Positions 5,917-59,376 of a stretch of 64,000 nucleotides of DNA are shown here, piece by piece. Within the stretch, counting starts at the first letter, position 1, and each line of letters begins with the position of its first letter. The translations under genes and the position numbers were made by a program. The stretch comes from an uncultured Clostridium sp. GTDB taxonomy: Bacteria > Bacillota > Clostridia > TANB77 > CAG-508. Below the pieces are notes generated by a model. That model saw only the letters and a list, made by a program, of their open reading frames with translations, ran no database searches and was not told where the DNA came from. Where the stretch lies: the NCBI GenBank assembly GCA_946545035.1, contig CAMNND010000001.1, positions 34,809-98,808 on the forward strand, written 5' to 3'.

Positions 5917-8900
5917 ATGGCGACAGTATTATCAACACTTTATCCTCCTCTAATTGGAACTTTTCAACCAGCTTTTGAATATGACGAAGGACCAGAAATT
6001 ACATTTACTATTTCTAATTATAATTCATATTTAGGAATTAATCATTTACATATCTCTTTAGTTAATCAAAAAACTAATCAAAATGCTTTAGCAACCAATT
6101 CAAATAATGCGTTTTCTGTTCCAACAGGAACTTATTTAATTGATGGTATTTGAATTGTCCCATTTCAGGATAGTTATTTTAATGAATTTGATACTGAAAA
6201 TAATCTATATAAAATAAAAATCCCTAAAACTATTTTAAAAAATCAGGCTACAGAATTCGTAATTGACTATTACTATAAAGTTCAATTAAGATTTGATTGC
6301 GTTACAGACGATATTATAGCTTCCGCAAATGTTTCTGGAACAGTTTTTAATTCTACTTATTTAAACATTTTCAGAAGTTATTTTTCTGAATGATCTAGTA
6401 TTTCATTATTAAAAGCAGTCCCGCATACAGAAATTCAGTTAACAAATTTTACCATTGTTAACTCTAATGGGATAGCTAACGATAATTTAAGAAATAAAAA
6501 AACACCTCAATTTACACCAGGCGTTATTCCAATTGTTGGTAAATTAGTATTTTTTAAAGATAATAAAACAATTAATGCAACAGATGCGGGAAAAGAGTGG
6601 ATAAAAGACTATCAAATAAAAATTTTTAGAGAAGAAGATGATAATTCTCAAAATTTAATTTTAGATAGTGGTATCATTTATCCAGATGCCTATAAATTTA
6701 GTGAAAACAATTTAAATATTTCTTCTATTTCTCAATCCAGCTATTGGACAAATAATTTTTCTTATTTAGCTGATTTAACAGATAAGGATCCTAATTATAA
6801 TTACATATTAAATATAACAATTCATACAAAAAATAATTTTACCGCAGAAGAATCTTTTAACTTTAAATTAATAAATGCTTTATTTACACCAAATTGAACT
6901 TGATCTTTTAATAAGAAAAAGCTTCCTTATTATGGAGACATAATAGAAAAGATAGTAACAGAAGAAGATGGAGAAATTAGCGGAGAAGTTAAAGTTGAAC
7001 CAGAATTAGACACTCAATCAACAAATTATTTGTATCAACAAGAGCCTGGATATATGTTTATTCGCCGAGCCGATAGTTTAAGTGATTTTAAAAATTGAAG
7101 TATTATAAAATGTGTAGCTTGTTCTACTCCTTTACAACCAGTTAAATTTACAGATAAAACTGTAGGTAGCTTAGTGAGATATAGATATTCCGCGCAATAT
7201 TTGTGCTTTAGAGGCGGTGTTCAAACATCTGTTAATAAAAGTCCTATAATTATTTATCCTGACTTTCATGACATTCTAATTAGTGCTGGAGATAGACAAT
7301 TAGCAATTAGATACGATGGACAAATTAACTCTATGACTCCTGTTGTAAATAGAGTTAAAATAGACACTCTTGGCGGACGTTATCCTAAATTTGCAGAAAA
7401 TGCTAAATTAAATTATAAGCAATTTAATCTATCTGGATTAATAGTAGCAGAAAGTGATTATAATAGAAAGTTTTTAAATGATTTAGATTATTCAGATGAT
7501 ATGCACGCCTATGATAATGCTCAAAAAGGAACCTATATAGTTCGCAATGATACAGTTTTAGAAAATTTTGATTCTGAACACAAAAAAGGAACTTATACAA
7601 AGGATATTGAAAATAAAACATCATGGATTGATAAAGAAAAAGAGTCTTCTCAAAAAAATACTAGTCACGATATTTATCCTTCAAATAATTGATGGTGAGA
7701 ACGAAAATTTAGAGAAGAAGCTGTTAAATGATTAAATAATGGTCAGCCAAAACTTTATCGTTCTATGACAGAAGGAAATATGATTGTTATGTTAGACGGT
7801 ATTTCTCTAACTCCAAACAATCAATTAGGGCGAAGAATTTGAAATTTTTCTTGTACTGTATATGAAATTGGAGACGGGTATAATCTTGAGTTATTAGATA
7901 GTCTTAATATTTTTAATATTCAAAATGAATATGAGCAAAAAAATATTGACTTAGAAGAAAAATATGGAGAAGATATTGACTCTGATTCTTTGATTAGAAA
8001 AACGGTTACTGAATTAGGACAACAATATGAAATCCAAGCAATAAAAGATACTCAAAATAATTATAAAGGATTAGTAGAAAATGTTATTGTCAATAATATA
8101 AACTTTTTATATCAAGGTTTAGGGAAAAATTATGTATATAAAAAGAATTCAGCATTATTACATAACTTAAAGATTAATTTTACATCGCCTCCACAGTATT
8201 ATAATTTAAATTCAAATATTGAAAAGATTGATATAGAAGAATATTTTTCAAAACGAAAAGATATTGATCAATTTATAGCTACCGCAGAAGAAGATGAAGA
8301 ATTCTTTTTAAATAATGATGTTGGTTTAGGATATAAAATAACTCTTTCATATTATGATTCAAGTAACGGTACTTCAACAAAAGTTCCTATTTTTGTTTCC
8401 TCAACCGATGGCCGCACAGGATATTATCAAGTTCCTTCTAATTTAATTATTTCTGAGATTGTACTATATGATGACGCTACAGCTATATTAGATTATTCTT
8501 TAACATATAAATTAGATTACTATAATGTAGATATACCTGATTTTTATTCTCAAGAAGAAACATTAGTCGGACAAGTTAACGATTACTGGTCTTTTGGAAC
8601 AAATATAAGCACTTATATTAATGAAAAATATAGAGTTTATAATTGAACAGAAGAAGATAGCTATGAATATTCTGAGGGATTAATTTATTGAAAAGGTATT
8701 AATATTGAAAGCGATCCTTACAGTATATATGAAATCAGTTATAGAGAGAGTGTCCCTGGTGTTGTTCAAGCAGGTGAAAAAAATACTTATATAATTCCTA
8801 GAACTGGAACTTTAAATCTATTACAAAATTATGAAGTTTCTTCTTGCTGAGCCGCAGGTAGGCAAATGTTTGTTGTAGATGAAAAAAGAAAACCTTACTT

Positions 8901-9456
8901 AGATGAATGAGAATGCGTTCTTGATGAAACAGTAACAAATCCATATGATCCTGGAAATCAAATTTCTGATGGAATATATTGATATTTAGTTAAAGGGTCC
9001 GATGATATTGATTTAGATACAGATGGTAATAATAATTATGTTTTAGTAAAAATTCGTGTGGCAGATGGTAATCTTTATATTGTAAATAATGATTCTGAAC
9101 AAGGAACTATATTAAGCTGAGATGATTTTAATAATGGTGTCTTAGATATATATGAAGATTGATTTAATTTAGATTCAATAAGCAATTGTATTATAGATAA
9201 TATTAAACAACCTGATTACAATAAAGTCTATAGAATTATTGATAATAATTTTGTTTCTTATTATATGATTTATTATTTAAATCAAGGATGATACCCAATA
9301 GATTTTATTGATAATTCAAATCAAGATGTTATGCAAGCAAAGGTTCCCGTTTCTGGTTTAATCGAATATAAAGCCGATATTTACAAACAGGGATGAGAAA
9401 TCTTAAATGGGCAAAAACGAAACATAAGCGCTACCAATAGTGATAATAATGGTTAA
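5917..9456 (+). CDS. Large virion structural protein (~1179 aa; tail/baseplate-like), TGA-recoded
   Basis: RBS ggaggataaa + ATG 5917. Frame-1 track ORFs 5917-6153, 7174-7692 and 7990-8646 are joined only through TGA codons. I hand-checked no TAA/TAG in frame 1 across 6154-7174 and 8647-9453. Stop TAA 9454-9456. Confidence 0.55.
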
Positions 9457-19045: not shown

Positions 19046-19546
19046 ATGCCTAAAGTTAGATTTTATCGTAGCACCGATGGAACTTTTTTACCTCCGATTC
19101 AAAATGGATCTATAATAGTCGTCCAACGAGAAGGCTCAGATAGTCAAGGATTTAATTATGGAGACATTTATGTAGATATAGACGATGCTACTCGTCTAAG
19201 AATATTACCTAACAATGAATATAAGACATATAATACAAATGATTTAAACTTAAAAAATATTATTCCTGCACAAGGTTTTTTGTGCATGATTACCAATACA
19301 GAAAATCAACAAATTGGAGTTGTAATTGGAGATGGTATTACTAGTTTAAATACTCTAATTAAGACTTCATTAATTCCAAATATTACATATACAGATCATT
19401 TACCTATTGATTTCTGAAATAATAAAATTAATGCTTATATAGGAACTGATATTCCAAAATATAATTCTGAAAATTTAGATACAATAGGTCAAATTTTAAA
19501 TATAATTAACCCAGAAGAAACTTTAGTTTTAACAGCCTTATATTAG
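19046..19546 (+). CDS. Hypothetical protein (~166 aa), 1 in-frame TGA
   Basis: RBS aaaaaggagggg + ATG 19046. Frame 2, extended through TGA 19415 to TAG 19544-19546. Confidence 0.5.
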
Positions 19547-19559
19547 GAGGATAAATAAT

Positions 19560-22500
19560 ATGAGTATTGACACAGCCAACGGATATATATCTCAAGTTGT
19601 TCTTCCTCCAAAAGAAGAAGGCGACATTGAAAGATTATATTTAATTAAAGATAAAAATGCGCAAGATAATATTAAACTTTTACAATCTGATTTAACATCT
19701 TTAGATAGTGAATTAAATACATTAGATAATAAAATAGATAATATCGAAATTCCTAATATTTCTAATTTAGTTAGTACAGATGATTTAACTAATACTGTTT
19801 CAGGTTTAATTAGCAAAAAAGAAACAAATGATAACTATGTAACTTGGTCCAGTTTACTTACTTATTATTCTAACAATGCTACTTTAAAAAATAATTATGC
19901 CCATATTACAGATGGAATAATTGATAATGCAACAATTAATCATGAAAATGTAAATGGTTTATCTGAAAATTATGCGCATATTGCTCAAGGAAAAATTATC
20001 AATGCAGTAATTGATTACAATAATGTAGATGGGCTAAATGAAAATTACGCCCATATAACTGATGGTATAATTAATAATGCAACAATAAATTATACAGATA
20101 TTAATGATTTAAATGATCATTATGCAAGTATTTCAAATGGAATAATTGATAATGCAAGCATAGATTATACAAAAATTAATAATTTAAATGATAATTATGC
20201 TCATATAACGAATGGCTCAATTGATAATGCAACTATTAGCCATCAAAAAATTGAAGATTTAGGTAATAATTATGCTCATATTGTCAATGGGATTATTGAT
20301 AACGCGAATATTGATTATGCTAATGTTAATAACTTAAATACTAATTATGCACATATTACAGATGGAATTATTGACAATGCAAATATTGATCAAGCAAAAG
20401 TTAATAATTTAGACACTAACTATGCGCATATTGAAAATGGAGTTATTGATAATGCCACAATTGATCAAGCTAAAGTTAATAATTTGGATGCTAATTATGC
20501 ACATATTCAAAATGGTGTTATTGACAATGCAAATATCGATCAAGCAAATATTAACAATTTAGATGCTAATTACGCACATATTACAAATGGAACCATTGAT
20601 AACGCAAATATTAGTTATGCAAATGTTAGTAATTTAAATGCTCATTATGCACATCTTGAAGATGGAGTTATTGATAATGCTCTAATCGGATATGCTAATG
20701 TTGATCAATTAGATTCTCATTATGCAGAAATTGATATGGCTAATGTTAATAATGCTTGAATTGAAAATGGTGTTATTAAAGATGCCGCAATCTCTGATGC
20801 AAAAATACTTGGAGTTAGTGCAAATAAACTTACCGCAGGAAAAATAGATGCGGCAAACATTAATGTAATAAATCTTCGTGCAGATAATTTAATTGTTACT
20901 AAAATTAATGGACAACCTGTTATTGGTGGATATACATTAGTAGACCCCGCAATCTCAGGATATATAGATAAAAATCCAAGCCAAGAAAAATGGTATGAAT
21001 TTTATAATAATTTATATACTCTTACTGTTGATACTGTAGTAGATCCTAATAAAAATTATTATACCACTTCTGATTCAGTTGAGTTATATGACCAAGCTAC
21101 AATCGACGGAATGCTTGAAAATATAAATGCAAGAATAGATTCTCAAATTGAAACTTGAACAGTAGATGAATTACCTACTCTAAATAACTATCCCGCAAAT
21201 CAATGAAATACAAATAAATTAAAAGATGCTCACATTGGGGATATTTGTTATGTTGTTAATGCGGCAGATGATTATAATGGCTATACATACCGTTTTGCAT
21301 ATGATAATAAAAGTCAACAATATAGTTGGATTTTAATTCAAGACAATGATACAGCTGCTACTCTTGGACGAATTACTCAACTTGAAGAATTTAATAATCA
21401 ACTTGTTCATTGAGAAGATGCTACTGATGAAGGCGTTACTACCGTTAGAGGACGTTTCACAGAACTTTCAGGTCGAATTGATAAAGTTGTAAAATCGTCT
21501 ATTCAGCTTTGACATACGGCAGAAAATACAACCCTTCCTGATAAACCAACTTCTGCAATTACAAGTGTTTCAACAGAAGGTAATATTTGAACTTCTGTTG
21601 TACCAATATATAATGCTAATTATCCTTATTATTTCTATTGTTGGCAATATCAGTATGAAGATGAATCTTATGATTGATCCGCAGTTGTTTATGATCAAGC
21701 TACCACAGAAGCCCAAGAGCGAGCAAGAACTGGTATAGCAAATGCGGCGACTGCACAAAGTACAGCAGAAGATAATATTAGATCAAGTGTTCAACTTTGG
21801 TTCACAAAGAAGGATAAAGAAGAATTTCCTAATAAGCCTACTAGTCAAGTTACTAATAACAGCGCAACAGGAAATACTTCATATAATAGATGAAATCTAG
21901 TTGTTCCTACCTATAATATAGGTTATCCATATTATTTCTATTGCTATCAGCAACAAAAAGGTGATGGAACTTATCAATGAACAGATGTTGTATATGATGA
22001 TATTACCTCTGCGGCAATGGAAACTGCGCGATCTGCTATTAGCACCTTTGAAACTTTTGAACAAACAACTTTCAAAGAAGTTACTGATACAATTGATACT
22101 CAAGGAACAACTATTACTCAATTACAGACCGCAACTGAGAAAGCGTTATCTCAAGGTATAGAATATATAGTAGGAACGCATGGAACTACCGCAACTAGTA
22201 ATTGAACTGGTGTTACTCAAGAAGAACAATTATATACCGGTAAACAAATAGCTTATTATATGACTAGTGCTGGTGTAAGTAATAATCCTGCTACATTAAA
22301 TCTACAATTATCAGATGGAACTTGAAGTGGCCCAATTAATGTTAAAATTAATAATACAGATGTAACAGATCAATATCCAAAAGATACAGTTATAAAACTC
22401 ACTTATGACGGCGGAGCTTGAAAATCTGATAATTATAATTCAGATACAAACTATTATGATCGTGAAGCTTATAAAGCAAGCGTAACTGCTAACGGAGCTA

Positions 22501-25500
22501 TTTCCGCAGGTAGAATAGGAGTATTTGGAACTGATGGTAAATTAAAATTATTATCAAATTCCGCTTTTGATACTTCTTATCCAATACTTTATATTGGAAC
22601 AGCTTATACTACTAATACCTTAACACAGACTAATAATTATACTTTTTGAGGTACTCCTTTTAATCTTACTAATACTCATGCTATTACAGGAGCTGCCGCA
22701 GGCAAACCAGTATATATAGTTGGTGCATTAAATGGTAACATTATAACTCCAACATCTGAGGTATTAACTTGCACAGAACCAACAGAAGAGAATGGATTAT
22801 TCTATCTTCGTTTAGGTCTTATGTCTACTGCAAGTAATGCAGTTTTAGAGTCTCAACATCCAATATATGCATTTATGGATGGGAAATTCCAACAGACAAC
22901 ACAAAGTGTAGTGACAGTCTCAAATACTGTAAATACAGTAAAACAAACCGCTGATATAAATAGTGCTAAAATTTCTAATTTAACTCAGACTCTTGGAACT
23001 AATGCGGACGGCACTACCGCAGAAAATGATATTATACATCAAATATCAGAGATAAATCAAGATCTTGATGGTATAAGCACAAGAGTAAGTAAAACAGAAG
23101 CTTCGCTAAGGAGCAGTACTTTTGCAACTTCTTCTACTGCAGCAAGTACCAAAGCTAAAACAGCGACTATTTTCCCTGAAAATAACGATTTTGAATTATA
23201 TACTGGTGCAACTATTACAGTAAAATTTACAAATAATAATACTGCTTCTGCGCCAACTTTAAAGATTAATTCTACTGAAGCTAAGCCTATTAAAACTTAT
23301 TCTGGAGCGAATCTTAGTGAAGCAGAATATAAATGAGATGCTGGTTCTACTATGAATTTTGTTTATGATGGAACTAATTGACGTATTCAAGATAGTACTG
23401 AATTAACAAGATTAAAGAACAATGAATCTCGTATTACACAAACTGCTGATTCTATTACTTCATTAGTGGCTAATAATGAAACTTATACTGCCCCTGATGG
23501 TACTACTAAAACTAATACAATTAGAAGCGCAATTAAACAAAATGCAGATAATATTGATCTAAGAGTAGAAAAAGCTAACGTTATTGCTTCTATTAATGCA
23601 AGCGTTGAAACTGATGGAACTAGCGCAGTAAAAATTTCTGCGGATAAAGTTAATATTGAAGGCGCGGCGATATTTAATAGCGGTCGTTTATCGACAACTA
23701 GTTTAAATAATACTTATGATTCTAAGGGATCAGCTTCAGCTGCTCAAACCGCTGCAATTAATGCGGCCGCTGTAGATGCTACCCAAAAAGCAAATGATGC
23801 TCAGAGTGCGGCAGAAGCAACTGCTTCTGCAGACGCTACTCAAAAAGCCAATGCGGCACAATCAGCTGCAATTTCAGCAGCAGCGACGGATGCTACTGAA
23901 AAGGCTAATGCAGCTCAAAGTGCAGCGGAGGCAACAGCTGCCGCAGATGCCACTGAAAAAGCTAACGCAGCTCGAGATGCTGCTATTAGCGCAGCTGCAA
24001 CCGATGCAACAACTAAAGCGAATGCAGCCGAGGCGAACGCAAAGGCCAACGCAGTCAAGCGCACTCAGCGCATCTGGTACCGCTCGAACAGCGCCACAGC
24101 GCCTTCTACGCCCGGAACAGCATCCTCGAACTGGGTAACTAAAGCCGACGATGGTAACAGTGCATGGACCAAAATGCACATCGCCATCAACAATACGCAC
24201 AAGTATATCTACACGTGCGAACAGTATGAGATGGCTAATGGCACGGTGGGATATACATCGGTCCTTCTAGACAACACTATCACAGTAATTGACGGTGGCA
24301 ACATCATCACTGGTAGCGTCAAGGCGAACGCCATCAACGCTTCGTCAGGTACATTCGATACTGCTAATATTCCTGAGTTGACCGCGAATCATATTAAGGC
24401 TAATGTCATCAGTTCCATTAATCAATCTACGGAGACGGTTAAGATTCAGGCTTCCAAGGTTGAGATTGACGGTACGGCGGTGTTTTCAGCTATTAGCTCA
24501 GATGTTGATGATGCAATAACCGATAAAGGTTATGCTACGACCACTCAAGCACAAGGCTATGCAAACACTGCAAAATCCGAAGCTATTAGCGCTGCAGCAA
24601 CTGACGCAACGTCTAAAGCTAATGCAGCAGAAGCAAATGCTAAGGCAGCTATTCCCAGTGATATTTCTGAATTGAATAATGATACTGGTTTTATTACAAA
24701 TGCTGATGTGCCCACAAAAGTGTCGGAGTTAACGAACGACTCTGGTTTCCAAACTGCTTCTCAGGTCAATACAACTATTACCGGAAAGGGTTATCAGACT
24801 GCTTCTCAGGTAGATTCTGCTATTACCTCTAAGGGCTATCAAACTTCTAGTCAAGTAGAAAGTGCCATCACATCCAAGGGTTATGCCACAACTACTCAGG
24901 CACAAGAATATGCGAATACTGCGGAGCAGAATGCTAAAGCGGCTATTCCGACAGATATTTCTAACTTAAATAATGACTCTGGTTTTATCACAAGTGCTGA
25001 CGTTGTGCAAAATTGATTTGCTACGTGCACAACGGCTGCGGGCACTAAGGACAAAGTTGCCACAATAACCCCAGCTACTACGAGTTTCTCGCTCAAGGCT
25101 GGTGTCACCGTTAATGTTAAGTTTACGAACACCAACAGTTACAGTGCGACGTCAAGCTCGCACGTGACGCTGAACGTCAACAGTACGGGCGCCAAGAACA
25201 TCTACTACGGTGCAAGCTCTGCCCCAACAGGCACCAATACAACTCCATTCGGTAGAGCTAATTACACTAACACCTATGTCTATGATGGAACATATTGGGT
25301 ATGGGTCAGCTCAAGCGCGGACAATAACTCCGATACATACAACCGTGTGCGCTGGCAGGATGTGGTTACGATTCTTGAAAAGCCTACTGGAACTTGGCGA
25401 ATCCTGTGCGGAACAGCTTCTGGGTACAAGCAGATTAAAACAGGAGTCACGTTCGACCTTGCGTACCCGATTCTTTCATTCTCGACTCAACCAGAGGCGA

Positions 25501-28500
25501 ATGCCACAGCTGATACGGGGTACCTTTCCGTTAACAGCTTAACGTTCTCGAATACTGCGGCAATCCAGTCTGGTGCAGCAGGTAAGACGATATTCCTGAA
25601 AGGAACCATCTCTGGCAATACATTTACAATCGATTCAACGAACGTATTTACTACAGTCGTTCCAACAAGCGAGGATGGCTTCTTCTACATTCCGCTAGGC
25701 ATTATGACCTCCGCGACTGTTGGATATTTCGAGTCATCTAAGGATCTTTACGCCTATCTGGACGGTCGATTCCGTCAGGTTACGCCAACTGAGATTGTAG
25801 CCAGTCAGCGAATTTACTATCGCTCTAAGGTGTCTGGCACTGTCCCGAAGCCGACCGCATGGATCACCCTAGCCACAAATAAGTACAATGATACTGTTAG
25901 TGTCGGTAACAGTGGTTGATCTACGAAAGTCACTCCAATTGCAGCATCCAAGGCCGAGAATGTTGCTAAGTATTTATATTTATATACATGTGAGCAGCGA
26001 AAAAGACTTGACGGTACAATTGAATGTACGGCTGTTACTCTTGATGAAAATACTACTATTATTGATGGTGGTAATATTATTACTCATACAGTTACAGCTG
26101 AACAACTCAATGCAACAAGCATTAATGCTAGCAAAAGCTTGACGGTTGGCGCGATGACCGACGCAGCCGCGAGCACGATTCTGAACAGTAACGTGCAGGT
26201 CGGAGGGAGGAACCTGTTGAGGCTAACCCAAAGTCCCCAAGTGTCCGAAACTGCATGGTCTTATACGGCGGTGCCGACGAGCATTGATGGGTGGACGAGG
26301 TATGCCAACGCGGTGACTTTGGAGCGTACAGATAACGGTATAAAGGCAACCCACAATACCACAAGCACTAGCGACGGTTTTGTTGTACCACTTGTCACGT
26401 ACAATGCCGTAACAGGCGGAGAGAGTCTTTCCGTTTCATTCGAGTATCGAACCAACATGACCTCAATCGGAACGCCATATCTTCTCGCCACAACTAACGA
26501 AGGTGGTACCACTGGTAATACCCCTCTTGGTCACAGCGTTTCGGTAACAAAGTCCGAAACCGAGTGGGCTAAGTTCAGTGCTATTTGGACATTCCCCACA
26601 GCAACAAATAAGGTCTATGCATTCCTCCTTCTGACTTATCTAGCAACATCAGGCGGATGGATAGAGATTAAAGACAGCACTCTCAAGCTCGAACGCGGCA
26701 ACAAGGCCACCGACTGGACTCCTGCGCCAGAGGACCAAACAGCATATGTGGATGCAATTCAGGTCGGCGGAAGAAACTTGCTGCGTGGTACGGCTGCGAT
26801 GATGTCTGGCACAGGCCGTTGGAATACAGGAACCTTCCGCGCATCTGGTGGCACGCTTTCAAACGTTACTACTACTGATCTACCTCTTCCAAGCGTTTCT
26901 AGTGCCTTGCGAGTTACAAATAATGGTAGCTCCGCAGCCAATGTTGGTTTTGCACAGGATGTAATCTCCGGGCTTGTCGCTGGCGAGGCGTATACCGAAA
27001 GCGGGTGGATTCGCGCGAGTGCTGCGATGGAAGGATATTTTCAACCGATATGGAAGTCTACTGCGCAAATGACGTCGACCAACAATGTTGCTGGAAAACG
27101 ATTTCATCTGACAACTGATTGGCAGTGGTTTTCGTGGACGGGAACGCTTAATGGAGATCAGGCCAGCACATACAGCGGCGGATATGCTTATGCTATAAAC
27201 TGTCCCGCAGGTGGATGGTTCGAAGTCTGTGGTTTAAAGCTTGAAAAAGGTAACAGAGCTACTGATTGGACACCCGCACCGGAAGATGTAGACTCAGCAA
27301 TAGAACAATCTGTCGCTGGACAAGGTGGATTTACAATTCTTTGAAATTATGAAAATTTTACAACAGCAAACAATGGAGAAGGATATATCTGTGCTTTAGA
27401 TCCAATAACAGGTACTAAGTCGGATTCTGATGGCTGAATAATGTGAAATGGTGTAAAGCGAACTATTCCAAAAGGTATGATTAATCCTAATACGGTACAT
27501 CCATATAATACTCCATGTTATATAGTGTGTAGACTTTCATCTGCAGACGCTACAACCGGAACTAATTATATTGTTTCATATAATTCTGGTTGAAAAGGTG
27601 GAGTAATTAATGCGGGCGCACTTTCTGACTGAACTTGAAATGAAGCTACAGATATTATTATTGGTAAATATGTCGAAACTGCATCTGAAGCAGCTTTTGT
27701 TGAAATGGAAATTTATAATCCTCCATTATCATCTAAACAAATTACAACTCAAAATATTACCGCTTCAAGAGCTAATAGTACAGCTACTACCGCGAATAAT
27801 AAACTTGTAGCTTTCCGTGGTGTATGTTCTACAGCTGCGGGCACCGCAGCGAAAGTAGTATCTTGTACAGGTTTCGCGCTTACACAAGGTTATTCTATAA
27901 CAGTATATAATACAACAGATAACACTAGTGCAGCAAAATTAACTCTAAATGTGAATTCTCTTGGAGCAAAAGACGTTTGAGTTGCAGGCGCTGTTACTTC
28001 AGATACTAATCGATTACTTTGAAAAGCAGGTTCCACTATAACTTTTGTTTATGATGGTACTCAATTTAGAGTTGCAGATAGTCCTGCATCGCTTTATGGT
28101 ACTACTTGTACAATTGCAGAAGGAACTGCTGCAAAAACTACTACGGCTAATGATTGTGTAATTTTTAAAGGTACACAAATTACAGTACCTATGTCTAATT
28201 CTAATACAGCTACAAGTCCTACTCTTAATGTTTCCTCTCTTGGAGCTACAAATATTTATCATGGATCTGGCACTACAGGTCCTACTAAAGCCAATGGCTA
28301 TGCGTGACCTGCAACTGCCGCAGTAATATTTACTTATGATGGTAAATTCTGACGTTTTGGTAATCAAACATTTATCGATGGTGGAAATATTCTAACTGGA
28401 ACAATTGCTGCAGATCGTATTAAAGCTAATGTTATTAGCGCTGTAAATAATGGTACAGGTACTATTAATGCAGATAAAATTAATGTTTCAGCAATTAAAA

Positions 28501-38548: not shown

Positions 38549-39208
38549 ACCAATATTTTCCATATACAAGAGCATATCCAGCATATCGTTCTTTAAAAGT
38601 ATCAATATTAAGACCGATAGTACTAGTTAAATTATACATATAAACCATATTATTTTCTACTTTATAAATAACATAAGGCGTTGCATTAAATCAATCATCT
38701 GATCCAAATCAAATAATAATTGGATAATTATTACTTCCAACAGTTAATAAATAATCAATATTTTTATTAGAAATATTTTTTACTGATAAATCAATATCGT
38801 TTTCATCTAAATATATCAAAGAATTTTGATATAACATATCTGGACTTATTTTTCCTTGATGAGCAGTTCCTTCTTGATCAACTTCTTCAAAAAAATCTCA
38901 ATAATATTCATCTATGTCTACATCAATTCCAAATGTTTTCATAACCAAGAAAAAACATCCGTTTGTATCAGGATCAATAAAATGCCCTTTCAATTCTCTA
39001 TCTATATGCTGTATTGTTAAATCATTATTTTTAACTGTTGTTCAATCTGCTTCTTTATCAAAAACTGTAATTCCTGATATAGATTTATTAATTGAAACCG
39101 TAGAATTTATCTTTTTATCAAATAAATAAAATAACAATACTAAAATTAGTATTAAAATTAAAATTAGAAAATAATATAAATAACTAGAAAGCTGATTTAG
39201 TTTTTTCA
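38547..39208 (-). CDS. Membrane-anchored hypothetical protein (~220 aa; N-terminal signal-anchor MKKLNQLSSYLYYFLILILILILVLLFYLF), 5 in-frame TGA
   Basis: Hand translation of the - strand: ATG at ~39208 (overlaps the RuvC 3' end), open through TGAs to TAA at ~38547. Confidence 0.4.
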
Positions 39209-39672
39209 TCTTCTAAAATCCCCGCATACCCTAAACAAATTGCATCTGCTTCATCTTCTGTTACATCTTTATCAAAAAAATCTTTTACAAATTCTTGAGC
39301 CTTTTTCTTTTGTTCTGCGCGAGTACGACCAAATTTAATTCCATGCTTATCTTTAATAATGCTGCGCCAATGCGATGGACTTAATTCAGCAATAGGAATA
39401 CTACTACTAAAATAAATAATCATAGCTTGAATATAAGCTAATTTTTTATAAGTTTCAATATTAGATTGATATTGAATTCCTTCATAATAAATTTTTTCTG
39501 GATGATATTGTTCTATTAAATCATTTAAATAAATTACAAAAGAATACAATCTATCTTTCATAATTTTATTTGCAGGAATAGAAAAGTGCCCACTCGCAAT
39601 TAAGGTTTTATTATCATAAATAGCTCAACCAGTCGTGCGACTGGCTTGATCTAATGCTAATGTTCGTCGCAT
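39184..39672 (-). CDS. RuvC-like Holliday-junction resolvase (~162 aa); N-terminal LALDQASRTTG-W(TGA)-AIYD and C-terminal DEADAICLG motifs
   Basis: Track ORF 39184-39561 extended upstream through one TGA to ATG ~39672 with RBS caggagagtaaa. Motifs typical of phage RuvC-family resolvases. Confidence 0.55.
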
Positions 39673-39673
39673 T

Positions 39674-40138
39674 TTACTCTCCTGTTGAGCCTAAACCACC
39701 ACGGTCTTCAGTTCCAAGAGACTCAACAACATTAAATTTAATAGTTGGTTGTTCCTCTTGGATACGAAATTGACAAATACGTGTTCCTGCGGGAATTGTT
39801 ATAGTTTTAGTTGCATGTGCTGGGAACATTCAAATATCATTGTCTCCGCAATAACTAGAATCAATAACTCCAATGCTATTGGTTTGAGTAATACCTCAAT
39901 TCTTAAAAGTAGAAGACCTTGGAGCCATAATTGCTTCATATCCCTCTGGAAGCTTCATTGCAACTCCTAAGTTAATATATTTTTGTTCTCCTTGCTTGAT
40001 TGTAGTCTCTTCGTATGTATATAAATCAATTCAAGAGCCCACTTCAATCTTTTCAAGAGGATGCGCATTGGGTAAATATTTAATATCAATTGTAAGATCA
40101 CTTGTATCTGTGTTTTTATAAAATCTTATAATTCTCAT
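39674..40138 (-). CDS. dut: dUTPase (~154 aa): motifs [28 protein letters not shown]; 3 in-frame TGA
   Basis: Hand translation: ATG ~40138 with RBS tgaggtttaaaa, TAA overlapping the RuvC RBS. The five dUTPase motifs are recognisable. Confidence 0.6.
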
Positions 40139-40140
40139 TT

Positions 40141-40440
40141 TTAAACCTCATTTCAAGGTGAAACATTTTCAATAGGAATATTATGTTGCATTTTAAAATC
40201 AATTGTGTCTAGAGGAATATCAGGAGCTTTAGCATCATTGAATACAAGAACACATTTACAAATCCACCATTCTTCAACAATTTCGCCACCAGATTTTTTA
40301 GTACGATAAGTTTGTGACCAAGAATTTAGAATATATGCATTATCGCGAGCAAAATTCTCATAGTATTTATGAAGTTCATTTGCATCCTCTTCAGATTCAA
40401 CTCGAATCTCCGCGGTATTTTTAATTAGATATTTAATCAA
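40141..40440 (-). CDS. Hypothetical protein (~99 aa), 1 TGA near the C-terminus
   Basis: Track ORF 40153-40440 (TTG start, RBS gaggagg) extended past TGA to TAA ~40141. Confidence 0.4.
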
Positions 40441-40699
40441 TTGAAGCCTCCTCGCTATTCATTTTTGCTTTAACAAATTCAAGTTGATTGGCTTGACTTA
40501 CAAAATATTGAATATAATCTACAGGGCCATGATAATCAACTTCTACTTCTTCTTGTACACTATTGGAATAATTTTTAACAAATTCCACAGATTCTTGCGG
40601 GACTTTAAGTTGAGAAATTTTATGCATTTCTCCATTATCAAGCACCTCAAAAATTTGAGTAAAATCTACTGGATTAGCTAAAACAATTAGTTTATGCAT
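40433..40699 (-). CDS. Hypothetical acidic protein (88 aa)
   Basis: Track ORF, ends TAA. Confidence 0.45.
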   Translation of the reverse strand: MHKLIVLANPVDFTQIFEVLDNGEMHKISQLKVPQESVEFVKNYSNSVQEEVEVDYHGPVDYIQYFVSQANQLEFVKAKMNSEEASID

Positions 40700-41069
40700 T
40701 TTAAACCTCTACAATCATTCATTCAGCTTCGAAAAGCATGAACATAAATACTTCATTGGTTTTATCTTTAATTCAAACTTCAAAAGCATCTTCACCATGC
40801 TGATACTGTATTGCAAGAATTTGTCCTCTTTCCTCCAGCACTTCTCGCAATTCTTGAATAGCTTTTGTAAATTGATTATCTGTAATATGAAATAAAGTAA
40901 AATCTGAACGTTCTTTACACATTAGCATAAATCAACGATTTTTATCTTTACTAAATCAATCACCAATTACATTTCAATTATGATTCATCATGTCTTCACT
41001 TTGTGGAGGAAGCTGTGACATAACTTGTTTGTTAAGTTCATATAGGTTACCAAGTGCTACTTCTGCCAT
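40700..41069 (-). CDS. Hypothetical protein (~123 aa), 5 in-frame TGA
   Basis: Hand translation: RBS gaatagaggtgtttat + ATG ~41069, open through TGAs to TAA ~40700 (adjacent to the downstream start). Confidence 0.4.
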
Positions 41070-41079
41070 ATAAACACCT

Positions 41080-41355
41080 CTATTCTATATCTGCTTTTAA
41101 AAATTTAACCTGTCCATTACCCAATTTTACAATTTTCTTTTCAGGTATATTATAAGTTTGTATTGTACAATTATTCACATCTACTTTTTGAGTAGAAAAA
41201 TATTCAAATAAAGACTTTAAAGAATCACACCCATAAAGATATTTTTCTTGACTATCTATATATAAATGTTCATGGGGTAAAGGATAACGAATTCTACCAT
41301 CTTTATAGAATCATGGACCTCCACCATCTGGTTTTTCATATCTATAAACAAGCAT
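41080..41355 (-). CDS. Hypothetical protein (~91 aa), 1 in-frame TGA
   Basis: Hand translation ATG ~41355 to TAG ~41080. Sits directly downstream of the - strand promoter 41379-41407. Confidence 0.35.
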
Positions 41356-44175: not shown

Positions 44176-44538
44176 CTAAGACCAGTAACTATTGAGATAT
44201 TCTTCTTCATCTTTTCTCTTTTGCTCTCTATCCTTAGCTGTTCGCTTTAAAGTATTTACAAACTTATCCCAGTTTATTTTTTGGAAATCTTTAGCTAAAG
44301 CGATTCTTCAATCTGAATATCCGATAGTTACTGCCCCTGTTTCTTCATCTAATTCTAAATAATCTCCCTCATATAAATAATGAATTTTTGTATCTGTAAA
44401 ACTGTATTTAAAAGTCATAAAAAAGGTAATAGCGGCATTCTCACGAATTTCTTCAATCAATCCCTGATGGGCTAATTCTTCTACCCACCAGGGAATACTT
44501 GAATCTCCAATAAAATATTTAGTTTTCATCATCACCAC
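44176..44538 (-). CDS. Hypothetical protein (~120 aa) inside the replication block that contains one in-frame TGA (track ORF 44308-44538 extended to TAG ~44176)
   Basis: Start overlaps the polymerase gene end (RBS ggagaaagtgg). Frame stays open 44 codons past the TGA to TAG. No gene in the window uses TGA as stop. Confidence 0.4.
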
Positions 44539-48374: not shown

Positions 48375-48403
48375 ATTATACCATATTATTTTGTTCTTGT
48401 CAA
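48375..48403 (-). promoter_or_regulatory. Consensus sigma70-type promoter on - strand (TTGACA-17-TATAAT) upstream of the polymerase gene
   Basis: - strand reads TTGACAagaacaaaataatatggTATAATtaatatagaaaattaaggag..ATG. Confidence 0.6.
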
Positions 48404-48412
48404 TATTTATAA

Positions 48413-48664
48413 CTATCAATCTGGTTTTGTATTATAAAAAATAATATTATGAGACTCTTCATATTCTTTTATTTTTAATTTCAATGTATCTATTTTATCT
48501 TGTGTAGATTTTAATTGTCGATTTAAATTATTAATTTCTCATTCTAATTCAAATTTTGTTCTTTTATATATATCTAGCATAGTTAAATTTTGACAATGTT
48601 GCATTGCATCAGATAATTCTTCAGAAGATTTACATTGTCGTGTATCAAAACCATAAGAAGACAT
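48413..48664 (-). CDS. Small coiled-coil ORF (~83 aa) translationally coupled to the RecJ-like gene (TAATG), with 2 in-frame TGA (one as penultimate codon before TAG)
   Basis: Hand translation: ATG shares one nt with the upstream TAA. Open to TAG ~48413 if TGA is sense. Would be a 40-aa peptide in the standard code. Confidence 0.35.
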
Positions 48665-55110: not shown

Positions 55111-56079
55111 CTAGAATTTAAAATTAGTTGCAGAAGTGGGTGAAGAAGAGCTAGGTGCAAAAGGTAGATCATCATTAGTGCTCTTAGTTGCAGACGCGGG
55201 AAAACCGCTCTGGCCTGCTGAAGAACTATTACGAGCTTCCGCACGAGTTTTAGCTTCAGCCTTTTGCTGTTCACGATTCTGTAGACCCTGTTTAAACTCT
55301 GCTACAGTAATTGTAGACTCATCGTCCCAAGGATAGGGCTCAGGAGAACAACCCTCCATTTGCCACATACGAAGAGTACGAGTTGTATACTCAACCTGCG
55401 GAGCTCCCCAAGCAGTCTCTACCTGACGTTCAATCTTTTGAGTTGAAGATACAATCTTACCCCAAACATAAACTAGATAAGGCGTATTAACAGAAATATC
55501 AAGACTGTCAAAATACTTAATACCGCCTTCATCAGTTAGAGAATAAGTTACAGGAATAAGATCACCACGGAAGTTGAATACATAACCATTAATGTTCATG
55601 TAATCATTACCATTTTCAACTTCAATTAGGTTTGTCCCAGTAATGAGCATATCAGTCTCAAAATTATTGCGCTTCTCACGGAAACCGTCGTTGGCATAAT
55701 GAGTAAATCCACCACGAATTTGCTTAGACTCAACCATATTACCATCGCGACCCATGAAATCATTTACTTCAACATCACCTTGAATACGAAGCTTAGTTGC
55801 CTTATCCTTACCATCTTTCTCCCAAGTGGTACCACCATCAATAAGAGCCTTTAGAATTGTATAAGTCTCATTCTCCTTACCACTCTTCCAGAAAGGTACG
55901 ACATAAGTATAACGAACACTTACAATATTAATTCCATCCTCGTCAGTTGCAATGTTTACAGTACCATTAATATACTCCTGACCAGGATTCTTACTATTTG
56001 GACCTGCTACATTTGCAAAGAGACTAAAATTATAAACATAACCCTCTACATATACAACATTTTTCCAATTATTACGCAT
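55111..56079 (-). CDS. Putative ssDNA-binding protein (322 aa) with SSB-like acidic DDLPF motif near the C-terminus
   Basis: Track ORF. The motif is not at the extreme C-terminus, so the assignment is tentative. Confidence 0.3.
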   Translation of the reverse strand: MRNNWKNVVYVEGYVYNFSLFANVAGPNSKNPGQEYINGTVNIATDEDGINIVSVRYTYVVPFWKSGKENETYTILKALIDGGTTWEKDGKDKATKLRIQGDVEVNDFMGRDGNMVESKQIRGGFTHYANDGFREKRNNFETDMLITGTNLIEVENGNDYMNINGYVFNFRGDLIPVTYSLTDEGGIKYFDSLDISVNTPYLVYVWGKIVSSTQKIERQVETAWGAPQVEYTTRTLRMWQMEGCSPEPYPWDDESTITVAEFKQGLQNREQQKAEAKTRAEARNSSSAGQSGFPASATKSTNDDLPFAPSSSSPTSATNFKF

Positions 56080-56119
56080 ATAAATTCCTCTTTCAATTGT
56101 CTCTTTTTCTTACATATAT

Positions 56120-56148
56120 ATTATATAATATATTTTATTGTTCGTCAA
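56120..56148 (-). promoter_or_regulatory. Sigma70-type promoter on - strand (TTGACG-17-TATAAT) overlapping the 3' end of the ThyX-like gene, driving the SSB/Sak4 unit
   Basis: - strand reads GTTGACGaacaataaaatatattaTATAAT. Confidence 0.5.
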
Positions 56149-56808
56149 CTGCATTTTCTTGAGCTAGGTTAGGAAATTCTCCAGTAATCCATTCTTGCAT
56201 TGGAAGCGTATGAACCCAATTAACAAAGTCTTCACGCCAGCCTGAGAGACGATGATTCTTACGTTGATTATACATGGTACGAAGAACTTGATAATTAAGA
56301 CTTACCATACGAGTCTGGAGAAAACCTTCAGGAAGCATAGCTTTAATCTTCTCAAAATATTGTTCTTTAATATCTCCTGGTTCAAGAGTTTTATATAATG
56401 CAATTAATTCATTAATAACATTTATATAATTATGCATAGCTTCATTTGCCATTTCATCTTCACCAAAAGTGAAATAAAAATCTTCTGGCTTAACACCATC
56501 ACGCATTAGAGTGTGCATAGTAGATTGACTATTAGCAGTAGTACCAATCTTATAAGTATCCCATTCACTCCACCAGAAACGTGGTGCAGTAATATTTACC
56601 CACACACCAATCTGACGAAGAAACTTAGCATGTTCTGGACTACCAGCTTCACAAAGACGCTTAGCTAGATTATAGTCATTAATGCCAATATGGAGATTAC
56701 CATCTTCATCATACCCAGTATCAGCTTTGTCATATGATTTAAGAGGATGACGCATACCTGCGATAGCAGGAGCAAACCCCGCAATTTCTACTGTTTGAAA
56801 ATTAATCA
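56135..56808 (-). CDS. ThyX(Thy1)-family-like protein (~224 aa from ATG 56808) lacking the canonical RHRxxS catalytic motif (has APRFWWSEWDTYKIGTTANSQS instead)
   Basis: Track ORF 56135-56860. A better start is ATG 56808 with RBS aaaggggaaca, overlapping ATGATTAA with the upstream stop. Resemblance to ThyX helices (..[21 protein letters not shown].. / ..TRFFW..NARSL.NFL.LR) recalled from memory. Confidence 0.35.
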
Positions 56809-57785
56809 TTGTTCCCCTTTGTTTGATTATATCCAATAGCATTTGAATTGTATAATTCAATAAAATATTTTTCTTTTTCGTTTAATTGACTAGCATCACA
56901 TTCCAAGAGAAGTTCAAAAGAAAAAGAATCTAATCCATATTCTTGCATTGCAGCATATAATTGATTTCCTTGCGGCGTATCAATACCTAATCCTGCTTTA
57001 CAATGATCCATTCATCTGCGGCGAACATCTACAGCTTGACCTATATAACATTCACCTGTCTCTTGATTCGTAATTTTATAAATGCCGCACACATCAGTTT
57101 TACCTAAGATCTTAGGAAATTTTTTCTTAGCAATAGGTGTATAATAAGCTTGTCATATTGCCATTAAGATTGATCTAGGTTTTGCAATTTTTTTAGCAAC
57201 TTCTCGCAATATTTCTACATCATTAGCTTCTTCTCTTGGAAGAATAAGACAATAATCATCTTTAGTTTCTTGAATTTCTTTTTCTCTTTTAGCTGCTTCA
57301 ATTGCGGCCGCACGAGTTGCTTTTAAAGATTCCAACTGTTCTTTTTCAGTTTGAATATATTCTGTTAAAGTCTTTAATGTTATTGCATAATATTCTTCTG
57401 AATCTTTAAAATCTTTTTTTAATTCTAAAAGTTTCTTTTGATATACAGCATCAGCTTTTTCATTTGCCAATTGCTCAGATTGAGCAATAAATTCTTGAGC
57501 TTGTTTATTAGATTCTTCGATAAGCTCTTTTTCTTTTTTAATAGAAAATAATTGATCTTGCATAGAATTAATTTCATTTGAATAGTCTGTAATTTTATTT
57601 ACAAGACTTTCATGAATACCGTTTAAAGTATTAATATCTTTTTTTAATAACTCTCGCTCTTCTCAAAATTTTTGATTGCTATCTTGTATTGGCTTAACTG
57701 TGCGGCAACCTAGTGTATAACAAAATCAAGCAAGAATTATATCTATAATAAATATAGTAATAGGAATTATTATATTTCAATTCAT
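56802..57785 (-). CDS. TGA-recoded 327-aa ORF: N-terminal TM anchor (IIIPITIFIIDIILAWFCYTLG), central coiled coil, C-terminal GIY-YIG nuclease domain (GIYKITNQETGECYIGQAVDVRRR-W(TGA)-MDH...GYN). 5 in-frame TGA; it would be split into 3 fragments in the standard code.
   Basis: Track ORFs 57153-57563 and 56802-57011 plus 74 upstream codons form one frame with no TAA/TAG over 327 codons. A TGA sits at the conserved RW position of the GIY-YIG motif (cf. I-TevI FEKRWKRH). Confidence 0.5.
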
Positions 57786-57789
57786 AATA

Positions 57790-57828
57790 AAATAGCGGAG
57801 ATAAGATTAATCCTACCTCCGCTCTCCT
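57790..57828 (-). terminator. Rho-independent terminator on - strand after the regulator gene (AGCGGAGGTAGGATT-AATCTTATCTCCGCT then ATTTTATT)
   Basis: Long imperfect hairpin + U-run, read on the - strand. Confidence 0.5.
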
Positions 57829-57850
57829 TTTATCTCTTTATATAATTTAT

Positions 57851-58099
57851 TTACTCTTTATCTGCATTAGGATCAGCAGTAACACCATCAGCAGTAAGAC
57901 GAATAAGCTTATCTTTCTGATCCTCAACAGCCTCACGAACAACTAGACCCTTACGCTGTAGACCATTAAGAACACCAGTAATAGAACGACCCTCAATATC
58001 AAGAGCAGCTGCAATGTCCTTAGAAGTTAGATCTTCACCCTCATGAGCCTGAAGGAAAGTTAGTACTGCCTGAGCTTTGTCTGAAAATAGTTTAGCCAT
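57851..58099 (-). CDS. Small winged-helix (MarR/ArsR-like) transcriptional regulator (82 aa) heading the - strand early block, downstream of two tandem consensus promoters
   Basis: Track ORF with RBS gagaaaaggagtctcatt. HTH-like segment LTSKDIAAALDIEGRSITGVLNGLQRKGLV. Confidence 0.45.
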   Translation of the reverse strand: MAKLFSDKAQAVLTFLQAHEGEDLTSKDIAAALDIEGRSITGVLNGLQRKGLVVREAVEDQKDKLIRLTADGVTADPNADKE

Positions 58100-58155
58100 A
58101 ATGAGACTCCTTTTCTCTCTTGGAACTTTGTTCCTTTTTATTTTATTTCTAATAT

Positions 58156-58184
58156 ATTATACTACTTATTTAATTAAAAGTCAA
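58156..58184 (-). promoter_or_regulatory. Sigma70-type promoter P2 on - strand (TTGACT-17-TATAAT)
   Basis: - strand reads TTGACTtttaattaaataagtagTATAAT. Confidence 0.55.
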
Positions 58185-58213
58185 GAACTTTTTTCTTAAC
58201 TTCTTTTAAATAT

Positions 58214-58242
58214 ATTATATCATTTAATTTATTTTTTGTCAA
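58214..58242 (-). promoter_or_regulatory. Sigma70-type promoter P1 on - strand (TTGACA-17-TATAAT), tandem with P2, upstream of the regulator gene
   Basis: - strand reads TTGACAaaaaataaattaaatgaTATAAT. Confidence 0.6.
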
Positions 58243-58251
58243 ATAAAATTT

Positions 58252-59376
58252 TTAAGAAAAAATTTCTTCGTACTTACAATCTTCGGGATCTTTATCCTCT
58301 CGCATACGAATAAACACTGGGTGCCGCAATGCACCGTCTTTAGTGGTAGACATTGCTTCACACTCTACAACATGACCAATATAATTGTCAGGATTTTGCG
58401 CCATATCTTCTCGTATAGCATCAGTAAAACCAGAAGCTACACGACCTACTTCTACAAGTTCACCATTCTTATAAAGACCTAGAGTCATAGCATTTTTCCA
58501 ATTATTATACCAAGGCTTAGTAACAGGTTGATAAATATGAGGATTTTGTTCATAATCTTTATAATGATACCCATATAGAGGATACCATTGGAAAGCACCA
58601 TTTTGATCTTGTTCACCACGTTCAATCCAATATTGCCAAGTTTCAATTTCTTTACCCGTATAAATGCGAATTGGATCTTCTAGACCAATACAAACAAGAT
58701 CAATGCTATCCATATGTTGCTTCATCTTAAAATAGGTCTTTGTAGGACGTTTGCCTGGTTCATAAATAGCATCAGCCTTTTTAAAGACCATCCCCTCTCC
58801 ACCATTGCTTAGAATATCATGAAGAGTTTGTTCAAAATTATCTGTATAAACATGAGCCATTTCTACATAAACATTAATATCTTGTTTATAAAACCAATCT
58901 TGGAATTTTTTAAAACGAGCTACGAAACCAGTATTGCAAAAGTCAATACCATCAAAGCGAATGACATCAAATACATAGTAATGAATAAAGCCACCGTAGC
59001 CTTGTCCTTTTTGTCTTGCAATTGCATTTTGTGGTGTACACCCCATAATCTTAGTTACATCATTACTTTTACCGCCAGGAACATAAATTTCACCCAATAA
59101 GACAGTATCGTCTGGAAGAGATTTTGCCCATTCTATAATATGTGGAACATTAGCACTTTTTTCTACAAGTTCACCCGTTTTACGAGATTTAGTTCTTGCA
59201 AATAAATAAATATGATCATTATCAATTTTCTCTAGCATATAAAGTGCACCATCATATTTTTGTTGTGCTACCCATTGACCATTACCTTTAAAAGCTTCAT
59301 CAATAAGTGCTTGGGATGGTTTACCATTATATTTCATTGGATCGAGTTGGTAGCTACCCGGATAAAGTTCACTCAT
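58252..59376 (-). CDS. ATP-dependent DNA ligase (374 aa; adenylation motif I KYDGAL)
   Basis: Track ORF with RBS aaaggagaa. KxDG motif ~40 aa from the N-terminus. TGA-free. Confidence 0.5.
   Translation of the reverse strand: MSELYPGSYQLDPMKYNGKPSQALIDEAFKGNGQWVAQQKYDGALYMLEKIDNDHIYLFARTKSRKTGELVEKSANVPHIIEWAKSLPDDTVLLGEIYVPGGKSNDVTKIMGCTPQNAIARQKGQGYGGFIHYYVFDVIRFDGIDFCNTGFVARFKKFQDWFYKQDINVYVEMAHVYTDNFEQTLHDILSNGGEGMVFKKADAIYEPGKRPTKTYFKMKQHMDSIDLVCIGLEDPIRIYTGKEIETWQYWIERGEQDQNGAFQWYPLYGYHYKDYEQNPHIYQPVTKPWYNNWKNAMTLGLYKNGELVEVGRVASGFTDAIREDMAQNPDNYIGHVVECEAMSTTKDGALRHPVFIRMREDKDPEDCKYEEIFS

Follow-up and report, generated by a model that had tools for sequence, protein, structure and literature searches.

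SNIPE (PD-lambda-1) is a bacterial membrane-bound GIY-YIG nuclease that cuts phage DNA during injection; it consists of a transmembrane (TM) segment, a middle domain and a C-terminal GIY-YIG domain, and a version of it without the TM segment is toxic (Nature 2026, PMC13190303). According to a preprint, phages carry PD-Lambda-1 more often than bacteria do. Borges et al. (2021) described a TGA-biased 'group I intron endonuclease' in Agate phages and proposed that its production is delayed. Here we analyze a phage gene that shares features with both systems. It lies on the minus strand of a 64,000-nucleotide stretch (hereafter, the window) of contig CAMNND010000001.1, assigned to an uncultured Clostridium sp., between the genes for a MarR-type regulator and a ThyX-like protein. 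An earlier note on this DNA, made from the letters alone, had read the gene as encoding a membrane-anchored coiled-coil protein with a C-terminal GIY-YIG nuclease domain. Our comparison with related loci indicates that it is a single intact gene in which the stop codon TGA is reassigned to tryptophan, and that its product is a predicted membrane-tethered nuclease whose translation would have to await the phage's change of genetic code.

Read from 57785 to 56802 on the minus strand, the gene comprises 327 sense codons, five of which are in-frame TGA, with no internal TAA or TAG, as the earlier note had counted, and with no TGG. The probability of a TAA- and TAG-free stretch of 327 codons, which the note had put at about 1e-9, was 2.9e-11 when recomputed from local base composition. 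Under the standard code, the locus is listed, again as noted before, as a 136-aa ORF (57153-57563) and a 69-aa ORF (56802-57011) with a truncated GIY-YIG piece. This fragmentation could be taken to mean that the region holds no single gene, but either a pseudogene in decay or two short ORFs of the standard code (136 aa and 69 aa), and fragments of 136 aa and 102 aa are indeed what ORF callers and public databases contain. However, the frame is broken by TGA alone, never by TAA or TAG, two of the TGA codons occupy conserved Trp columns for which other lineages use TGG, the 69-aa piece would be devoid of the GIY, YIG and Arg motifs, and more than 120 homologues are conserved over their full length. 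The full-length homologues, the codon alignment and the invariant residues together already refute the pseudogene or two-ORF reading, to which we attach a negligible probability.

The codon-aware alignment comprised the window and 19 related loci (designated by L numbers). Codons 211 and 258, which are TGA in the window, were Trp-encoding TGG in the standard-code relatives L010-L020; both columns were also TGG in the TAG-recoded relatives, and L005 and L006 had a mixture of TGA and TGG there. Among 43 sequences of the family, W211 was invariant and W258 was Trp in 38. A genuine stop at the 57153 TGA, which the earlier note had considered for homologues, was not what they contained: they had continuous ORFs with TGG there. 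When translated with genetic code 4, the window protein had one full-length database entry with 100% identity, and its full-length homologues were about 300-350 aa long, shared 46-87% identity and came from contigs measuring up to 146 kb. The TGG codons at the same Trp columns in standard-code homologues bear out the earlier view that this is one gene, which can be read only with TGA as Trp, and the alignment indicates that TGA encodes Trp in the nuclease gene. Pieces of the family of 136 aa, 102 aa and similar sizes are deposited in public protein databases (clusters P0269-P0274), and they end exactly at the W211 TGA (middle-domain matches stop at query position 61); these fragments are a systematic standard-code miscall.

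To place the five TGA codons in context, we compared Trp codon usage across the window. The large plus-strand (structural and late) ORFs at 1-38503 contained 149 TGA and 66 TGG, so that TGA accounted for 69% of their Trp codons. The 14 large minus-strand genes for replication and nucleotide metabolism at 41462-63441 contained 81 TGG and no TGA, and they ended in TAA (10 genes) or TAG (four genes), never in TGA. The nuclease gene, with five TGA and no TGG, differed from these 14 early genes (0/81) at p = 2.9e-8 (Fisher). It is almost alone in ~22 kb of standard-code early genes in using a recoded stop for every Trp. Two small ORFs of the early block (~44176-44530 and ~48400-48660, both minus) carry one TGA each, so the nuclease gene is not literally the sole recoded frame in this block. 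The distal leftward genes (38547-41084, minus) are recoded though non-structural: a RuvC-like ORF (39184-39690) has one TGA, a dUTPase-like ORF (39674-40180) has five TGA and no TGG, and three others have 2-5 TGA. On the plus strand, a single frame of 3,499 codons (19533-30029), presumably encoding a giant virion or tail protein, has 33 TGA and 35 TGG, a TGA share below that of the other late ORFs.

The same pattern was found in the relatives, namely in L001 and L003-L009. In nine loci of the TGA clade, the nuclease gene had 4-5 TGA, the genes for GyrA, MarR, YorF and Sak4 had none, the ligase gene had none save for one in L003, and ThyX had 0-4. The codon-3 TGA was kept across the whole TGA clade (as MN@N or MD@N, with @ at the TGA). 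The wider nuclease family also spans standard-code and TAG-recoded relatives. In the latter (L022-L039, L051, L060 and L061), most nuclease orthologues had 12-21 in-frame TAG and a few had 5-10, as against 10-24 CAA/CAG; in L034 the ratio was 21 TAG to 12 CAA/CAG. The first TAG stood at codon 3-4 in L028, L034 and L035, which parallels the codon-3 TGA of the window. In the same TAG-recoded loci, GyrA, ligase, MarR and YorF had no TAG, ThyX had 0-2 and Sak4 had 1-6. Judged by these codon counts, the nuclease gene forms the recoded island within the replication module whether the reassigned codon is TGA or TAG. No tRNA with a UCA anticodon was found near the gene in the TGA-clade loci; L038 and L051, of the TAG clade, carry tRNA(CUA). 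As a separate observation, the ThyX orthologues of several close relatives (L001, L004-L007, L009, L052, L053 and L077) had 1-4 TGA, compared with none in the window, and the reassigned codon seems to be spreading into this neighbouring gene.

The domain order proposed in the earlier note, with a TM segment and coiled coil at the N-terminus and GIY-YIG at the C-terminus, agreed with both hydropathy and AlphaFold2. A full-length AlphaFold2 model (mean pLDDT 87) consisted of a helix at residues 6-29, a second helix at 34-173, a helical domain at 175-227 and a GIY-YIG core at 234-312. The maximum of the Kyte-Doolittle profile (19-residue windows) was 2.43, at residues 5-23. Because only ~5 residues precede the TM helix and R28 and K31 follow it, the protein is predicted to be oriented N-out / C-in, with its bulk in the cytoplasm; a TM helix, within the same overall layout, was also found in 15 distant family members. 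The stalk is modeled as one uninterrupted helix of ~140 residues (~20 nm); in distant members it can be as short as about 100 or as long as about 250 residues. Relative to the window protein, identity averaged 77% in the nuclease, 71% in the middle domain, 56% in the TM segment and 34% in the stalk. A second model, restricted to the C-terminal 180 residues (pLDDT 92), scored about 7.9 against UvrC, Eco29kI and PD-T4-3, and in this comparison no structure matched the middle domain. As the earlier note had remarked, the layout is unlike that of ordinary free-standing GIY-YIG homing endonucleases, since the catalytic domain is C-terminal and lies behind a TM anchor.

The GIY-YIG match, which the earlier note had singled out as a check on the code-4 translation, was above the cut-off for both PF01541 of Pfam (29.9 bits, cut-off 22.6) and TIGR01453 of NCBIfam ('group I intron endonuclease'; 71.3 bits, cut-off 56.05). 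PF01541 was matched by all 43 family members, and homing-endonuclease families of PHROGs matched the nuclease domain at E-values of 1e-20 to 1e-22. Eight residues (G234, Y236, Y247, G249, R257, H261, E305 and N320) were invariant in the 43 sequences. A profile built from these 43 members retrieved the I-TevI catalytic domain from the PDB, with R257 and E305 aligned to R27 and E75, the residues mutated in the I-TevI domain structures 1MK0 and 1LN0, while the other invariant residues fall within the GIY, YIG, R-W..H and GYN motifs. One TGA, codon 258, corresponds to Trp28 of I-TevI, confirming that it sits at the conserved Trp of the R-W..H motif. The catalytic set Tyr/Tyr/Arg/His/Glu/Asn is complete in an alpha/beta GIY-YIG fold, and by sequence the protein appears competent for catalysis.

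The gene had been described as inserted between the regulator and ThyX genes, a wording that did not hold, as it is syntenic in every related locus with enough flanking DNA. A 146-kb ENA contig preserved the order GyrB, GyrA, ligase, MarR, nuclease, ThyX, YorF, AAA_24 (Sak4), followed further downstream by DnaB, primase, RecJ and the DNA polymerase III alpha subunit, and the same order was found in IMG/VR loci, even where the neighbours shared 35-40% identity. An independent search anchored on YorF found the nuclease gene in every locus with enough upstream DNA, and among the related loci with enough flank none had an empty MarR-ThyX site. No group I intron or other Rfam family was detected in the whole window at gathering thresholds, and a permissive scan of 55500-58800 yielded no credible match. 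The flanking MarR-type and ThyX-type genes are both complete. The GC content of the gene (0.288; GC3, 0.134) is lowish, yet falls within the values seen for both early and late genes; a recent foreign insertion was rejected on this agreement of GC and GC3 with the neighbours and on the ancient synteny. When the middle domain alone was compared by phmmer with 1.84 billion representatives, 202 proteins were retrieved, nearly all of the same architecture, indicating a self-contained family of ~200 clusters at 50% identity. The nuclease gene belongs permanently to the replication module and is neither an intron passenger nor a sporadic mobile gene. The earlier idea of a novel architecture of homing endonuclease gene, in the mobile sense, is likewise disfavored by this uniform distribution.

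Two extra ORFs with no counterpart in the other loci were seen in L003, one in the gyrB-gyrA gap (1485-2264) and one in the YorF-Sak4 gap (8709-9455). They have a Vsr/PD-(D/E)XK-like C-terminus (…FDFYLP…CIEYDG.QH…), one of them with five TGA and one TGG, and are probably genuine sporadic homing endonucleases. Their sporadic occurrence contrasts with the single place of the nuclease gene in all related loci with enough flank.

We next considered the signals around the gene, whose positions are given in the table below. Two features that the earlier note had reported were reproduced: the nuclease stop overlaps the start of the ThyX gene, whose Shine-Dalgarno sequence AAAGGGG sits within the 3′ end of the nuclease gene, and the nuclease ORF starts right after a terminator, a hairpin with a T-run abutting the ATG. 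The hairpin has a folding energy of -22.7 kcal/mol (z = -4.4) and ends 8 nt upstream of the ATG, and there is no free Shine-Dalgarno sequence between the two. Among ~25 related loci, nearly all lineages had a U-run hairpin between MarR and the nuclease gene, with unrelated stem sequences and in two layouts. In one, the hairpin and U-run are followed by a Shine-Dalgarno sequence and the AUG; a Shine-Dalgarno sequence in this position is common among the standard-code relatives and occurs in part of the TAG-recoded ones. In the other, an A-tract, the hairpin and the U-run lead directly to the AUG, and the sole Shine-Dalgarno-like tract lies 5′ of the stem, paired with the U-run; this second layout was found in the TGA clade, including the window, in L074 and L075, the standard-code loci nearest to that clade, and in one TAG clade. 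We had entertained a 'split ribosome-binding site', in which the hairpin would bring AAAGGAG to the ATG, and dropped it because in the minimum free energy fold the A-rich tract is base-paired to the U-run, the usual arrangement of a terminator.

These signals suggest how expression may be controlled. The nuclease gene would be transcribed only via read-through of the MarR terminator, the two promoters upstream of MarR being a likely source of the read-through transcripts. Initiation would be poor without a free Shine-Dalgarno sequence, and translation would halt at codon 3 until the phage installs TGA suppression. Read-through, weak initiation and the codon-3 stop would together lead to an enzyme made late and at low level. 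The delayed expression suggested in the earlier note is thus consistent with in-frame TGA codons that would block early translation, an upstream terminator and the missing free Shine-Dalgarno sequence.

Table. Coordinates of the nuclease gene, its TGA codons, the predicted domains of its product and the flanking features in the window
Feature	Position	Strand	Basis or remark
Nuclease CDS, 327 aa, genetic code 4	56802..57785	minus	ATG 57785-57783, TAA 56804-56802
TGA codon 3 (Trp)	57777..57779	minus	Standard code: stop after two residues (Met-Asn)
TGA codon 20 (Trp within TM helix)	57726..57728	minus	TGG in same column of L006
TGA codon 41 (Trp, start of stalk, variable column)	57663..57665	minus	Codon list and alignment
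TGA codon 211 (Trp of middle domain, IWQ.YY)	57153..57155	minus	Trp in 43/43 family members
TGA codon 258 (Trp after putative catalytic Arg257)	57012..57014	minus	Aligns with I-TevI Trp28, R-W..H motif
N-terminal TM helix, residues 6-29	57699..57770	minus	Hydropathy and AlphaFold2 helix
Single alpha-helix / coiled-coil stalk, residues 34-173	57267..57686	minus	AlphaFold2, pLDDT about 90-96
Basic helical middle domain, family-specific, residues 175-232	57090..57263	minus	12 K+R vs 8 D+E
GIY-YIG catalytic domain, I-TevI type, residues 233-323	56817..57089	minus	Pfam/NCBIfam matches
Overlap of nuclease stop with ThyX start, ATGATTAA	56802..56809	minus	ThyX ATG 56809-56807
ThyX-like gene, 224 aa, 0 TGA, 7 TGG	56135..56809	minus	Pfam Thy1, 25.9 bits vs cut-off 24.8
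Terminator-like hairpin, 13 pairs and U-run, between MarR stop and nuclease ATG	57794..57823	minus	Folding
MarR-type winged-helix gene, 82 aa, 0 TGA, conserved neighbour	57851..58099	minus	Pfam MarR_2, 39 bits
Two tandem near-consensus sigma-70-like promoters (12/12 with extended TG; 11/12) upstream of MarR	58156..58242	minus	Pattern match only

The phage that carries the gene fits a stop-codon-recoded 'Agate' or phAss-like type; consistent with the Agate clade are related contigs of 113-146 kb, TGA recoding of the late genes, standard-code replication genes and the anaerobic NrdD/NrdG genes. A scan of bacterial genomes returned only phage-like contigs in metagenome-assembled genome (MAG) bins, including some from the rumen of sheep and the gut of rabbits. 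An anaerobic Firmicute is the probable host, considering the use of Shine-Dalgarno sequences, the Bacilli/Clostridia MAG bins and the DNA similarity of Sak4 to Enterococcus phages.

As to function, we favor, at about even odds, the reading that the gene encodes a membrane-tethered nuclease gated by the code switch, possibly for superinfection exclusion. A nuclease tethered by a stalk to the inner membrane face and lacking a recognition module would act solely on membrane-proximal DNA and would be kept off the phage's own cytoplasmic DNA, so that its most likely target would be DNA entering from superinfecting phages, as in a phage-borne analogue of bacterial SNIPE. If the coiled coil is parallel, it would bring two nicking domains together and allow double-strand cuts, and delayed translation would spare the phage's own genome while it is entering or membrane-associated. 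It is because the SNIPE design cuts injected DNA and spares resident DNA that we favor a phage-borne exclusion nuclease of this kind; the roles that the earlier note had listed, against host or competitor DNA or in superinfection exclusion, are all putative. More tentatively, phages of gut and rumen may, as an entire family, possess a SNIPE-like nuclease of separate origin, in which a homing-type GIY-YIG core joined to an anchor, a long stalk and a new basic domain would destroy the DNA of competing phages at the membrane, with selection on the timing by code switch strong enough for the recoded island to have arisen twice (TGA and TAG); we hold this extension to be possible rather than probable.

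Several points weigh against an exclusion nuclease timed by the code switch. By sequence, there appears to be no detectable homology to SNIPE beyond the GIY-YIG superfamily. Classical superinfection-exclusion proteins are made early, and a late, low-level protein fits this role less well; SNIPE is harmless to DNA that the cell already contains, which leaves no obvious need for a delay; and heavy recoding could be mere drift in a gene without an early need. The topology, the oligomeric state and the nuclease specificity are predictions from models. The timing of the code switch is also at issue. ARAGORN found no tRNA in the 64-kb window, which means that the suppressor must lie elsewhere. When three family members were searched by tblastn against 50,697 phage records, only the metagenomic phAss-1, and no cultured phage, was found beyond the bare GIY-YIG domain. 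phAss-1 (L051, OQ749652.1) is the sole GenBank phage with the middle domain; its orthologue (6455-7998) is split in the annotation into two 'hypothetical protein' pieces, and ~300 bp downstream of it come tRNA-Leu and two tRNA-Sup(CUA), followed by NrdD. With suppressor tRNAs just downstream of this orthologue, the delay may be short.

Other functions have been weighed against the same evidence. The vicinity of a thymidylate-synthase gene is a classic neighbourhood for homing endonucleases, and the protein could be a free-standing or intron-derived homing endonuclease whose translation is delayed by recoding, delay being the rule for such phage enzymes, and which serves its own inheritance or the exclusion of markers from co-infecting relatives. 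Its best matches are TIGR01453, PHROG 7168/314/5123 and the HEase models of PADLOC, its catalytic core is nearest that of I-TevI, and delayed expression is what Borges et al. proposed for the Agate endonuclease family, whose reading this is. Nevertheless, Rfam detects no group I intron, MarR and ThyX are intact, the related loci offer no empty sites and true sporadic homing-type ORFs such as those of L003 are distributed differently. The protein also lacks a NUMOD, helix-turn-helix or zinc-finger module, and a C-terminal catalytic domain behind a TM anchor and a stalk would be held off a target locus. We regard a homing endonuclease as unlikely.

A nuclease that degrades host DNA or salvages nucleotides, like T4 endonuclease II, would be made after the switch to supply ThyX, NrdD/NrdG and dUTPase or to bring about host shut-off. 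In favor of such a role are the position of the gene among genes for nucleotide metabolism and replication and the lack of a sequence-recognition domain in its product. The tether and the 20-nm stalk would, however, limit access to the nucleoid, location alone would explain how own DNA is discriminated, and host-degrading nucleases are normally early and soluble; we consider this function rather improbable. Alternatively, the protein might organize or process the phage's own DNA at the membrane, like p16.7 of phi29, a DNA-binding coiled-coil protein with a membrane anchor, but here with a nicking domain for replication, recombination or packaging. A TM segment, coiled coil and basic domain inside a replication module, with Sak4, RecJ-like and RuvC-like neighbours, would suit this role, but replication functions are needed early and yet the nuclease is the strongly recoded gene of the module, and no homology to p16.7 or to a replication initiator was found, which makes such an organizer very improbable.

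If an exclusion nuclease gated by the code switch is the correct reading, the locus is a clean natural experiment for stop-codon recoding as an expression timer, and it would show that nucleases can separate self from non-self by membrane location in phage-phage competition as they do in bacterial defence. It provides a test case for recoding in which one non-structural, non-lysis gene is recoded in an otherwise standard-code early operon, in two recodings. The nuclease module appears to have been recruited from homing endonucleases. An annotation correction follows as well, as public databases split the gene (136 aa and 102 aa) or label it an intron endonuclease. A compact, tethered GIY-YIG nuclease of low specificity could possibly be a useful tool.

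Among known systems, SNIPE resembles the protein in design. The two share an N-terminal single-pass anchor, an elongated helical middle part with a positive domain, a C-terminal GIY-YIG domain (predicted here to be cytoplasmic), the logic that tethering spares resident DNA, and a variable N-terminal region combined with a conserved nuclease. They differ in that the nuclease core here is of the I-TevI/TIGR01453 type and the middle domain is family-specific, and in that SNIPE belongs to host-defence islands, whereas this gene lies in the replication module of a lytic-type phage and its translation would be gated by recoding. Membership in SNIPE was rejected at the level of profiles: the window protein matched neither DUF4041 (PF13250, E ≤ 1) nor T5orf172 nor PD-Lambda-1, DUF4041 was absent from the families matched by the 43 members listed, and PADLOC returned only HEase, UzuA and coiled-coil noise.

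With I-TevI and the T4 Seg/Mob endonucleases, the protein shares the fold of the catalytic domain and all catalytic residues. Translation of I-TevI is delayed. By contrast with these enzymes, the domain order is reversed here, a TM helix and a long stalk are present, a DNA-binding module is missing (the matches listed for the 43 members include no Pfam domain of the NUMOD, helix-turn-helix or zinc-finger kinds) and the distribution is uniform. The recoding-gated late and lysis genes of crAss-like, Lak, Agate and phAss-1 phages resemble the nuclease gene in that in-frame recoded stops bar translation before the code switch, but the nuclease gene does not encode a structural protein, does not belong to a lysis cassette and forms a recoded island in a standard-code replication module. 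UzuA of Uzume, a defence system made up of a single gene, also has a related nuclease at its C-terminus: the C-terminal GIY-YIG domain of 40 of the 43 members matched positions 182-277 of the 278-position UzuA profile, although only this domain aligned, with weak E-values of 1e-6 to 1e-8, and N-terminally the two proteins are unrelated.

The endonuclease family of Borges et al. is probably the family described here. Both have TGA-recoded late genes and standard-code replication genes, a cattle or rumen-type source, the same TIGRFAM label and a preference for TGA in a gene of the early region. The published endonuclease, however, is described as intron-borne and 'inserted in an early gene', whereas the present locus has no intron and no disrupted host gene, and the text of Borges et al. 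does not describe a membrane anchor, a stalk, conserved synteny or a parallel TAG recoding. In summary, the TGA bias of the TIGR01453 endonuclease family in Agate phages and the principle of a membrane-bound GIY-YIG nuclease in bacteria are already known, while what is new is how the phage protein is built, the constant position of its gene within the replication module, the family-specific middle domain and the parallel TAG recoding.

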